Source: Acidobacteriota bacterium
Lineage (GTDB): Bacteria > Acidobacteriota > Terriglobia > Terriglobales > SCQP01
Assembly (NCBI GenBank): GCA_004299485.1
Contig: SCQP01000002.1
Span: 232,966 to 296,965 of the forward strand
Length of the DNA: 64,000 nt
Direction of reading: 5' to 3'
Position numbers and translations under genes: made by a program. Positions 34,721 through 37,108 of this stretch are shown in pieces. Under the pieces are notes generated by a model. The model searched no databases and was not told the DNA's origin. It saw only the letters and a list, made by a program, of their open reading frames with translations. Within the stretch, counting starts at the first letter, position 1. Each line of letters starts with the position of its first letter.

Positions 34721-37108
34721 ATGAACAAGGAATTGTATGTTTCGTCCACCCCCCATGAAACGCGTTTGGCCCTGGCGGAAGATGGGGAAATTGCCGAAGT
34801 CTATTACGAACGCGAAAAAGAGTATTCGCTAGCCGGTTCCATTTATAAGGGTCGCGTGACGCGGGTGCTGCCCGGCATGCAGTCTGCCTTTGTGGATATT
34901 GGCTTGGAGCGGGACGCGTTTCTCTACGTTTCCGACTTTTTTGAAGACAGCGAAGAGTACGACCGCGTCGTCAGCGAGGCCGAAAGCGCGGTGGCGCAAC
35001 TGGAGCGGCCGGCCGCCGGGCCGCCGGAACCCTCTGCTGCAGCCGAACCGCCGGAAGCGCCGGCAGGCGGCGAGTTGCGCGACGATCGCCGGGGTCGCCG
35101 CGGGCGCCATCGCGGCCGCCGGGGCCGCAGCGGTATTCCGGAAGAAAAATTCGCTCGCCCCTCCGATGCGGGTGCACCGGAGCCGGCTGCGCTGGAAGAG
35201 AACGCACCTGCGCCTGCGGCTCCTGCCGCGGCCGCGGCATTCGTGCTGCCGGGTGAGTCGCTGGCCAAATATCGCCATCCCTTGCCGCCACCGCAGGCGA
35301 AAGTTGAGCCAGCGCCTGCGCCCGCGCGCCCAGCGGAAAAACCTCCGGCGCCGGCGCCCGCATCCGCTGCGGCATTCGTGCTGCCGGGGGAATCGCTGGC
35401 CAAGTATCGCCACCGCCAACAAACACCTGAAGAACCCGCCATCGAGCCAGAAGCCGAGCCGGAAGTGGTAACGCCCCCGGTGCTGGCTGAGATCGAAGCC
35501 AACGGTGGCGAAGCCGAGCCTGACGATGCCATGGCTGCCGCGGTCGCCGGCATAGAGGCGGAAGAAGACCAGTTCCAGCCCGATGCTCCGCTGGCAGCCG
35601 GGAAAGGGGAAGAAGACGAAACCGAGGAGGTAGCCGAGGCTGGTGAAGAGTTCGAGGCGGAAGATCCCGGCCAGGAACCTGGGGACAGCGATGATGCCAG
35701 CGCCGCCGTCCGCGCGCCCGAGCCCGAAGCCCGCTTGCAGGCGCCCGCGCGCGGCGACGAGGAGCGGCGCCGCGAACGCCGTGGCGGACGTCGCCATCGC
35801 CGCCGCCGGGGCGAAGGTCCTGCCACCGGCGCTGCGGCTGCTCCGGCTGAGGCGTCGGCGCCCGCGCCGGTGACGCGCGAGCCGCGCGAAGGCAAAAATG
35901 AATCGTCCCGCCTGATCAGCGACCTGCTGCACGAAGGCCAGGAGATTCTGGTCCAGATCGCCAAGGAGCCCATCGGCAAAAAAGGCGCGCGCATCACCAG
36001 TCATCTGGCGCTGCCCGGCCGTTATCTCGTCTACATGCCGACGGTGCATCACATCGGCGTGTCCCGCCGCATCGCCTCCGACGAAGAACGCGCCCGCCTG
36101 AAGCGCATCATTCTCGAACATACGCAGGAGCTGCCCGGTGGTTTCATCGTCCGCACCGCCGGCGCCGGCGCCAGCGAGGAAGAGCTGCGGGCCGACATCC
36201 GGCTGCTGGCCAATCTCTGGAATGATCTGCGCACGCAGTTTGACAGTGTGCGCTCGCCCGCCCTGTTGCATCACGACCTCGATCTGGTGGAGCGCACCCT
36301 GCGCGACCAGCTCTCGAAAGACTTCACCCACATCTGGGTCGACGCGGACGAGCAGTTTCAGCGCGTGTCCAAATTCGTGAGCCTGTTCATGCCGCAGTTG
36401 GTCGACCGGCTGCGCCTGTACACGCGCGAGGAGCCGATGTTCGAGCACTTTGGCGTGCAGGAAGAGATCAACAAGGCCTTACACAGCAAGGTTTGGCTCA
36501 AATCCGGCGGCTACATCGTCATCAATCAGACCGAAGCATTGGTGGCGATTGACGTCAACACCGGCAAATACGTGGGCAAATCCAACCGCCTCGAAGACAC
36601 CATCGTCAAGACCAACGTCGAAGCGATCAGGGAGATTGTCCGCCAAATTCGACTGCGCGACCTGGGCGGCATTATCGTCATCGACTTCATCGACATGGAC
36701 GAGCGCAAGAACCGTCAGAAGGTGCTGCAGGCGCTCGATGAAGCCATGCGGGCCGACCGTGCGCCCTCCAAGGTCCTGGCCTTCAACGATTTCGGTCTGG
36801 TGGCGCTCACCCGTAAGCGCGTCAAGCAGTCCCTCGAACGCACCCTCGGCAGCCCCTGTCCCTATTGCGAAGGAGTCGGCCTGGTGAAGTCGCCGGTGAC
36901 GGTCTGCAATGAGATTTATTCCGAGGTCAAGCGCCTGGCGCCCTCCATCGAGCGCGACGATTTGGTGCTGCGCGTAAACCCGGAAATCGCCAAGCTGCTG
37001 AAAGCGCAGAGCGCCCAGCGCTTGCGCGAGATGGAAGATTTGGTGCGCAAGGCGATTTCGGTGCGCCCCGATCCGCAAGTCCACCAGGAGCGCTTCGAGA
37101 TTTACTGA
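34721..37108 (+). CDS. rne: Ribonuclease E/G family endoribonuclease with large low-complexity insertion in the S1 domain
   Basis: The S1 first half is [34 protein letters not shown]. About 310 aa later the sequence resumes with [38 protein letters not shown]. Catalytic core AIDVNTG and Zn-link [14 protein letters not shown] precedes ATG 34721. Confidence 0.9.
   Translation: [795 protein letters not shown]
35234..35412 (+). repeat. Two 44-nt direct repeats within the rne insertion, each encoding [15 protein letters not shown]
   Basis: 35234-35277 versus 35369-35412 differ at 3 third-codon positions by eye (ggt/ggg, gag/gaa, aaa/aag). Confidence 0.85.

Follow-up and report, generated by a model that had tools for sequence, protein, structure and literature searches.

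A predicted degradosome-scaffold-like module inside the S1 domain of an RNase G-like enzyme of Acidobacteriota, and its conserved LPGESLAKY peptide

Degradosome scaffolds are normally C-terminal tails. Here we describe an endoribonuclease gene of the Rne/Rng family in which a scaffold-like region appears to lie in another part of the protein. The rng-like gene, encoding 795 amino acids (aa), occupies positions 34721-37108 of the plus strand of a 64,000-nucleotide (nt) stretch of contig SCQP01000002.1 from an acidobacterium of the class Terriglobia (assembly GCA_004299485.1, positions 232,966-296,965 of the forward strand); this whole stretch is referred to below as the window. The S1 domain of the enzyme is split by a 325-aa insert that is predicted to be disordered and harbours two copies of a short motif with the core peptide LPGESLAKY. 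We judge it rather probable that this insertion into the S1 loop of an RNase G-like enzyme is a disordered module resembling a degradosome scaffold, and LPGESLAKY is our candidate for its docking peptide. Because this peptide has been kept almost unchanged across the Terriglobia, it probably recruits a partner.

The assignment of the gene rests on several independent features. The open reading frame (ORF) spans 34697-37108 on the plus strand (803 aa counted from the start of the ORF), and the likely initiation codon is the ATG at 34721 with a Shine-Dalgarno sequence, GAGGAG, 5 nt upstream; a database protein of 795 aa from an Acidobacteria metagenome-assembled genome (MAG), P0001, is 100% identical from the same methionine. 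The catalytic domain PF10150 is matched with an E-value of 1.7e-102 and 342.9 bits (cutoff 25.5), and the NCBIfam model of the Rne/Rng family, TIGR00757, with 494.4 bits (cutoff 325.95). The best NCBIfam equivalog is RNase G (NF008689), whose 500.2 bits are distributed over two stretches and fall below the cutoff of 594, a score that is lowered because the S1 domain is split. The RNase E equivalogs NF008074, NF052586 and NF052588 reach 261-301 bits against cutoffs of 900-1400. Residues 5-73 align to residues 4-73 of E. coli RNase E, and residues 399-736 to residues 90-427, for which structures have been solved. The catalytic motifs AIDVNTG and VIDFIDM are intact and aligned with E. coli D303 and D346, the 5' sensor motif IVRTAG is aligned with R169 and T170, and the Zn-link CPYCEGVG (CPxCxGxG) is likewise intact. 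As judged from sequence the catalytic core is complete and RNase G-like, and the protein is a predicted endoribonuclease. The thioredoxin-like small domain PF20833 is located at residues 720-802 of the 803-aa ORF, and since the protein ends with this domain there is no C-terminal extension, in keeping with the original prediction that a long C-terminal scaffold is lacking.

The genomic setting bears on the ancestry of the enzyme. Directly upstream (31141-34639, plus strand) lie mreD, mrdA (PBP2) and rodA, recognised by the Pfam domains MreD, PBP_dimer plus Transpeptidase, and FTSW_RODA_SPOVE, respectively, and the RNase gene is the last of this same-strand cluster mreD-mrdA-rodA-rng. The arrangement recurs in 118 related loci of 8 kb each, drawn from the stretches listed in the genome scan described below, where the neighbours of the RNase gene include rodA in 101 cases, mrdA in 76 and mreD in 27. 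In E. coli, rng is located in a comparable setting, mreBCD-yhdE-rng. The NCBIfam scores and the linkage between rng and mre genes together argue for an RNase G-like ancestor of the protein rather than an RNase E whose tail was lost. The suggestion that the S1 loop took over scaffold functions from elsewhere presumes an ancestor with a C-terminal scaffold, and for this reason we do not retain it; given the RNase G-like core and the mreD-mrdA-rodA-rng setting, the scaffold may have arisen in the S1 loop itself.

The insert is delimited by the alignment to E. coli RNase E, because the two aligned blocks (5-73 and 399-736) leave a gap of 325 aa in S1. It spans aa 74-398 (34940-35914; this and the following features are all on the plus strand) and occupies the place of a loop of 16 residues in E. 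coli, amounting to about 309 extra residues. In the numbering of E. coli RNase E the insertion lies after residue 73 and before residue 90, between strand beta3 of S1 and the short helix preceding beta4. The Pro/Ala/Glu-rich interruption of S1 foreseen at 34940-35905 (aa 74-395) is confirmed in this way, and it is corroborated by composition (A 21.5%, E 16.3%, P 14.5%, R 10.5%), by charge blocks and by low model confidence. On its N-terminal side lies the first part of S1 (approximately aa 36-73, beta1-beta3; 34826-34939), defined by alignment to E. coli RNase E and the S1 structure 1SLJ; on its C-terminal side the remainder of S1 (aa 399-427; 35915-36001) can be aligned with E. coli RNase E, beginning at its residue 90, as well as with Caulobacter RNase E (4OXP, chain residues 166-288).

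Within the insert a series of discrete elements can be distinguished. An acidic amphipathic helix (aa 74-96; 34940-35008) follows beta3 immediately and is defined by its conservation, a predicted helix and its hydrophobic moment. Next comes the first of two Arg-rich blocks, both of which had been noticed originally and both of which are present: block 1 comprises aa 120-138 and leads into IPEEKFARP (35078-35161 for the two together), which corresponds to the conserved family consensus GLPESKFxSP. Two copies of a 15-aa motif containing LPGESLAKY are located at aa 172-186 (35234-35278; identified by conservation and pattern match) and aa 217-231 (35369-35413; identified as direct repeat D1 and by pattern match). 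An acidic Glu/Ala/Pro tract (aa 232-347; 35414-35761), delimited from the charge per ten residues, separates the second copy from Arg-rich block 2 (aa 348-366; 35762-35818), which was defined from the translation and its conserved arginines. Net charge summed over ten-residue windows is -7 for residues 71-90, +7 for 121-140, -30 for 241-330 and +7 for 351-370, and the insert consists of alternating net-positive and net-negative blocks in a predicted disordered region. The motif copies had been described as the products of 44-nt direct repeats; both copies are there, but the repeats are identical at 41 of 44 positions and not exact, the three differences (GGT/GGG, GAG/GAA and AAA/AAG) all being synonymous third positions. 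Similarity between the repeats extends over 72 nt at 82% identity, and a degenerate DNA pattern of the motif occurs twice in the window against 0.00 expected from shuffled windows.

Two further observations concern the DNA of the insert, which has a GC content of 70-72%. The sequences encoding the two Arg-rich blocks (35094-35125 and 35781-35812) are 81% identical over 32 nt, a likeness that could reflect an old duplication or merely repeated CGC and CGG codons. Two antisense ORFs run across the insert on the minus strand (34829-36448, 539 aa, and 34924-35997, 357 aa); they are Arg/Gly/Ala-rich translations of the GC-rich insert DNA and most likely artefacts.

The insert is a stable feature of the family. 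The homologue set comprises the best 120 database proteins (760-990 aa), labelled Terriglobales, Bryobacteraceae (Bryobacterales) or Acidobacteria. All 117 full-length proteins among them contain the insert, at a length of approximately 270-500 aa, and AFVDIG and the KGA of S1 beta4 lie 324-555 aa apart in every one of the 117; in E. coli RNase G, with its short loop, this spacing is about 53 aa. LPGE with a sequence close to SLAKY directly after it is found in 118 of the 120, the other two being partial sequences. An insert confined to one strain would have counted against the original prediction, which had called for an orthologue alignment and a conservation check of this kind; what emerges is conservation across Terriglobales and Bryobacterales.

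The order of the elements is conserved as well. In the alignment of inserts, FFEDxEEYDxxVxxxExxV stands right after beta3 and is followed by a Pro/Ala spacer; then come the Arg block with GLPESKFxSP, another spacer and the motif region, which opens with two acidic residues (D or E); and finally the long acidic tract, the second Arg block, a linker and the remainder of S1. The core nonapeptide LPGESLAKY sits between the PESKF element and the acidic tract, the sequence SLTATLREQGPRYxHRVSRR precedes the second Arg block in many homologues, and in 109 of the 117 the motif and the acidic tract, in this order, are flanked by one Arg block on either side. For the acidic tract, the medians over the family are 147 aa in length and -37 in net charge.

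Conservation is distributed very unevenly along this arrangement. Mean identity to the window protein is 82% for the N-terminal and 72% for the C-terminal part of the core, 73% for motif copy 1, 58% for the acidic helix and 53% for Arg block 1 plus PESKF, and it drops to 16-28% in the spacers and the acidic tract (16% in the acidic tract, 20-28% in the spacers beside Arg block 1). Per-residue conservation, calculated from an alignment of 75 homologues, identifies F73 and E75 as invariant at the acidic helix, with F74, D76, E79, Y80, D81, V84 and E88 conserved in at least 90%. The same level is reached by R124, R126, R129, R131, P140 and K143 in the region of Arg block 1 and by R354, R358, R360 and R361 in block 2. 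In the motif, L176, P177, G178, E179 and K183 are invariant and L181, A182 and Y184 are conserved in at least 90%. Conserved islands of this type amid divergent sequence, as read from the alignment, are the usual signature of short linear motifs in disordered regions. The hydrophobic residues ahead of a Pro-Gly turn make the invariant peptide look like a docking motif.

The distribution of LPGESLAKY was surveyed with a scan of genomes for the back-translated motif, using one genome per species (185,579 species), which returned at least 120 stretches. The motif lies in frame within Rne/Rng reading frames in 118 of the 120 stretches listed; the remaining two matches, in a Bacteroidales genome (L012) and in Pseudomonas (L071), were dismissed as chance occurrences in short unrelated ORFs. 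MAGs labelled Acidobacteriota account for 114 of the 118, mostly Terriglobia, Bryobacterales, Solibacteraceae, Acidoferrales and Acidobacteriaceae; two are unclassified (L059 and L062) and two have other phylum labels. The latter are L032 (JANXWZ010000230.1, labelled Rhodanobacteraceae) and L039 (DATNKU010000015.1, labelled Candidatus Cybelea, Vulcanimicrobiota). Each codes for a motif-bearing RNase E/G typical of Terriglobia; in the region of the motif, L039 is almost the same as the acidobacterial L044 and L052, and both contigs are probably mis-binned. The insert of L032 exceeds 800 aa, so that insert length ranges overall from approximately 270 to more than 800 aa across relatives.

At the 119 motif sites in the stretches listed all synonymous codons are used (GAG 60 and GAA 59, TAC 60 and TAT 59, and all six Leu codons), and at the two positions where the search pattern allowed alternative residues, Ser is found at 119 of 119 and Leu at 117 of 119 sites. 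Synonymous codons vary freely, and therefore selection acts on the peptide and not on the DNA or RNA. An RNA-level cause of the conserved repeat was accordingly rejected, both on this codon usage and because Rfam has no match in the window.

A profile built from 65 motif-centred segments of 38 aa was searched against 1.84 billion representative proteins (E<=1e-3) and gave 230 matches. Among the 149 new ones listed, about 60 have S1 or catalytic signatures; 87 others are mostly short, with motif flanks that fit the family, and approximately half of them carry an Arg-rich or PESKF element. Most of those without RNase signatures are read as insert fragments from short metagenome contigs, judged by their motif flanks and composition rather than by a domain match; no Pfam domain was found in ten of the longer listed ones. 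The occurrence of the motif in another protein family was considered and discarded, none being seen among the listed profile matches or by Pfam in these ten. Two metagenome gene calls, P0181 and P0250, begin with a typical insert start and continue as Arg/Pro-rich, out-of-frame-looking sequence; insert DNA may be prone to frameshifts in assembly or gene calling. A metagenome scan returned only close relatives, and 39 of the 41 full-length ones contain the motif.

Copy number is considerably more variable than the peptide itself. Two canonical copies are present in 10 of the 11 nearest homologues (P0002-P0012), most other proteins have one canonical copy and some have two to four, and degenerate LPGE(S/T) variants occur. 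In Acidoferrum-type proteins (1000-1250 aa) an N-proximal VE(V/L)LPGE(S/T)LAxA is combined with a central 14-residue version and a C-proximal DDxILLPGETRxPR, and another lineage combines an 11-residue element with LEPLPGE(S/T)LSKW. P0121 has four copies of VLPGESI(A/S)KY, P0159 has three copies within 20-aa tandem repeats, and L002 shows a head-to-tail duplication at 5147-5203. Extra copies have repeatedly arisen outside the close relatives as well. The proposal that the duplicated motif is a candidate docking site is upheld in so far as it concerns a strongly conserved short linear motif, but the duplication is less general than the motif, as two full copies are found mainly in close relatives.

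AlphaFold2 was run on the full protein with a 75-sequence alignment. The resulting model is weak (mean pLDDT, the per-residue confidence, 58; pTM, the overall fold score, 0.41), with even the S1 domain poorly modelled, and within these limits the insert has pLDDT values below 50 except for a helix at residues 77-94 with approximately 75. The prediction agrees with disorder of the insert. Nowhere in the insert is the helical hydrophobic moment higher than in the acidic helix, which is the sole amphipathic helix there; a basic amphipathic membrane-targeting helix of the gamma-proteobacterial type was looked for in the insert and not found.

S1 insertions have been documented in alpha-proteobacteria and in the chloroplast RNase E of plants as charged, disordered segments of 50-150 aa with an unclear role. 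The closest structural parallel is RNase E of Caulobacter crescentus (PDB 4OXP), which has the identical insertion point: residues 3-87 and 398-519 of the window protein align on either side of its insert, the alignment ending at residue 87 and restarting at residue 398. The two inserts are alike in their charged character, in their predicted disorder and in starting with a helical acidic part. They share no sequence similarity, and the acidobacterial insert is much larger (325 aa here and approximately 270 to more than 800 aa in relatives, versus 50-150 aa for known cases); unlike that of Caulobacter it carries Arg-rich blocks and LPGESLAKY, and whereas Caulobacter RNase E has a long C-terminal scaffold the acidobacterial protein has none. 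The original prediction had invoked a Caulobacter insertion that recruits a helicase. The insertion point is indeed shared, but binding of RhlB was mapped to a fragment of RNase E, residues 1-274, which contains S1 with its insert and the 5' sensor, and not to the insert itself (Voss et al. 2014, PMC4245959). In the Caulobacter structure the insert is partly helical and extends into the site of RNA binding; a role as RNA mimic has been proposed for its acidic side chains (PMC4245959).

With the C-terminal scaffolds of E. coli and Pseudomonas RNase E the insert has in common disorder with conserved microdomains, Arg-rich segments and duplicated motifs, while its position differs (inside S1 here, after the small domain there) and the core of the enzyme is closer to RNase G. 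Among the features expected of a scaffold, the Arg-rich blocks and the conserved PESKF and LPGESLAKY islands are present, and a C-terminal disordered region is absent. E. coli RNase G (Rng/CafA) resembles the acidobacterial protein as its best NCBIfam match, in having no C-terminal extension and in its linkage to cell-shape genes; in contrast, the score lies below the equivalog cutoff and the E. coli enzyme is without a scaffold-like region. Alternating basic and acidic blocks are also found in the C-terminal domain of Caulobacter RNase E, where charge blocks drive condensation into BR-bodies (Al-Husini et al., bioRxiv 10.1101/272286); that domain differs in its position and in having many short blocks, against one very long acidic tract here. 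Arg-rich short motifs bind RNA, and in Pseudomonas one also binds RhlB, and published degradosome binding peptides have little sequence identity even between related species (PMC11964227). The known PNPase, RhlB and enolase peptides are not present in the insert.

On these grounds we propose that the insert would operate as a module of microdomains, made up of the acidic helix, the Arg block with PESKF, one to four LPGESLAKY copies preceded by acidic and hydrophobic residues, the acidic tract and the second Arg block, which are parted by fast-evolving spacers. The Arg-rich blocks would bind RNA beside the S1 RNA channel, and the alternation of basic and acidic blocks could let the molecules associate with one another through multivalent electrostatic contacts, as the disordered C-terminal domain of Caulobacter RNase E does. 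LPGESLAKY would dock a folded partner, which may be an enzyme of the degradosome kind (PNPase or a DEAD-box helicase, for instance) or else a second protomer by way of its RNase core. Additional copies may raise the avidity for an oligomeric partner, a rationale for which E. coli RNase E provides the precedent, its two PNPase-binding motifs together raising affinity approximately 1000-fold (PMC12489471). In its most explicit form the proposal holds that the degradosome of Terriglobia is of a distinct kind, with the whole scaffold inside S1 of an RNase G-like enzyme and LPGESLAKY, in one to four copies, as a new docking motif that brings an oligomeric partner in RNA decay right next to the substrate channel or links RNase tetramers together in condensates; to this explicit form we give slightly less than an even chance.

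Several findings weigh against a scaffold that docks a partner through LPGESLAKY. A conserved neighbour that might point to the docking partner was sought in the related loci and none was found; conservation there is limited to the upstream mreD, mrdA and rodA, and does not extend to the downstream genes. The peptide is not known to resemble any published PNPase, RhlB or enolase binding peptide. Among metagenome sequences, L190 (Ga0209172_10001152) has a Lys-rich S1 insert of approximately 520 aa without any LPGE motif and L198 has a degenerate LPGEKLSKRK, from which it follows that the motif has a narrower distribution than the S1 insert. The AlphaFold2 model, weak as it is, neither supports nor excludes a motif that docks on the core of the enzyme to which it belongs.

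The latter possibility is the main rival explanation: the motif, the acidic helix or both might dock on an RNase core, either that of their own protomer or that of an adjacent one, and thereby gate the RNA channel by autoinhibition or by imitating RNA, or tie tetramers together into higher-order assemblies. It would fit the Caulobacter insert that reaches into the RNA-binding site and is proposed to be an RNA mimic (PMC4245959), as well as the near-invariant acidic amphipathic helix directly after beta3, and a variable number of copies would suit a 'sticker' role. Among the listed matches the motif is seen only in the Rne/Rng family, as expected if its binding site resides in the same protein, but the class-wide invariance is expected equally with an external partner. 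AlphaFold2 placed the motif nowhere on the core (pLDDT below 50), which has little weight given the quality of the model. We regard docking within the enzyme as unlikely, at perhaps a third of the credence that we give to the module as a whole, and more probable than the remaining alternatives.

Less probable still is that the motif serves as a regulatory site, either a degron for a protease adaptor or a site of Tyr or Ser phosphorylation that controls the level or activity of the enzyme. Other bacteria keep RNase E levels under tight autoregulation, and Ser, Lys and Tyr are conserved in an exposed disordered segment, which would suit a site of modification or recognition; the multiple copies and the hydrophobic and acidic flanks are, however, more typical of docking motifs. 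The insert might finally be a tolerated low-complexity expansion of a permissive loop in a GC-rich genome, its repeats generated by replication slippage and without any scaffold role. The low identity of the spacers, the wide range of insert lengths, the high GC content and the tandem duplications in L002 and P0159 would all be compatible with such an origin, and the same loop takes up unrelated inserts in alpha-proteobacteria and plants. Against this stand the retention of the insert in all full-length homologues with a constant order of blocks, the invariant residues under selection at the peptide level, and the two duplicated copies in the window that are both intact and differ only synonymously. 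Neutral expansion is largely refuted for the microdomains, and we consider it very improbable as an explanation of the insert.

Two other groups of genes in the vicinity can be described briefly. Upstream of the cluster, on the opposite (minus) strand, 28730-30644 encodes an extracytoplasmic function (ECF) sigma factor (Pfam Sigma70_r4/Sigma70_ECF) and an adjacent zf-HC2 anti-sigma factor. Directly 3' of the RNase gene, on the plus strand, lie pdxS (Pfam SOR_SNZ) and a likely pdxT (37434-38912 for the pair), the latter assigned purely from its sequence; linkage of pdxS and pdxT to the RNase gene was not seen in the 118 related loci.

In the literature searched we found no mention of LPGESLAKY, and no paper on an acidobacterial degradosome or on acidobacterial RNA decay (the degradosome search led instead to work on Burkholderia RNA-binding proteins), the RNase E classification of Ait-Bara and Carpousis (2015) lying outside the literature covered. 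What sets the inserts of this family apart from known S1 insertions is their lineage, their size of approximately 270 to more than 800 aa, their Arg-rich blocks, their highly conserved motif and the lack of a C-terminal scaffold in the same protein. In its degree of conservation LPGESLAKY far surpasses previously described degradosome binding peptides (PMC11964227).

Terriglobia are among the most abundant soil bacteria. For this class a conserved nonapeptide represents a precise and cheap handle for finding the first acidobacterial degradosome partner, and it would let one ask whether a partner held beside the S1 channel alters the way in which the enzyme handles its substrates.

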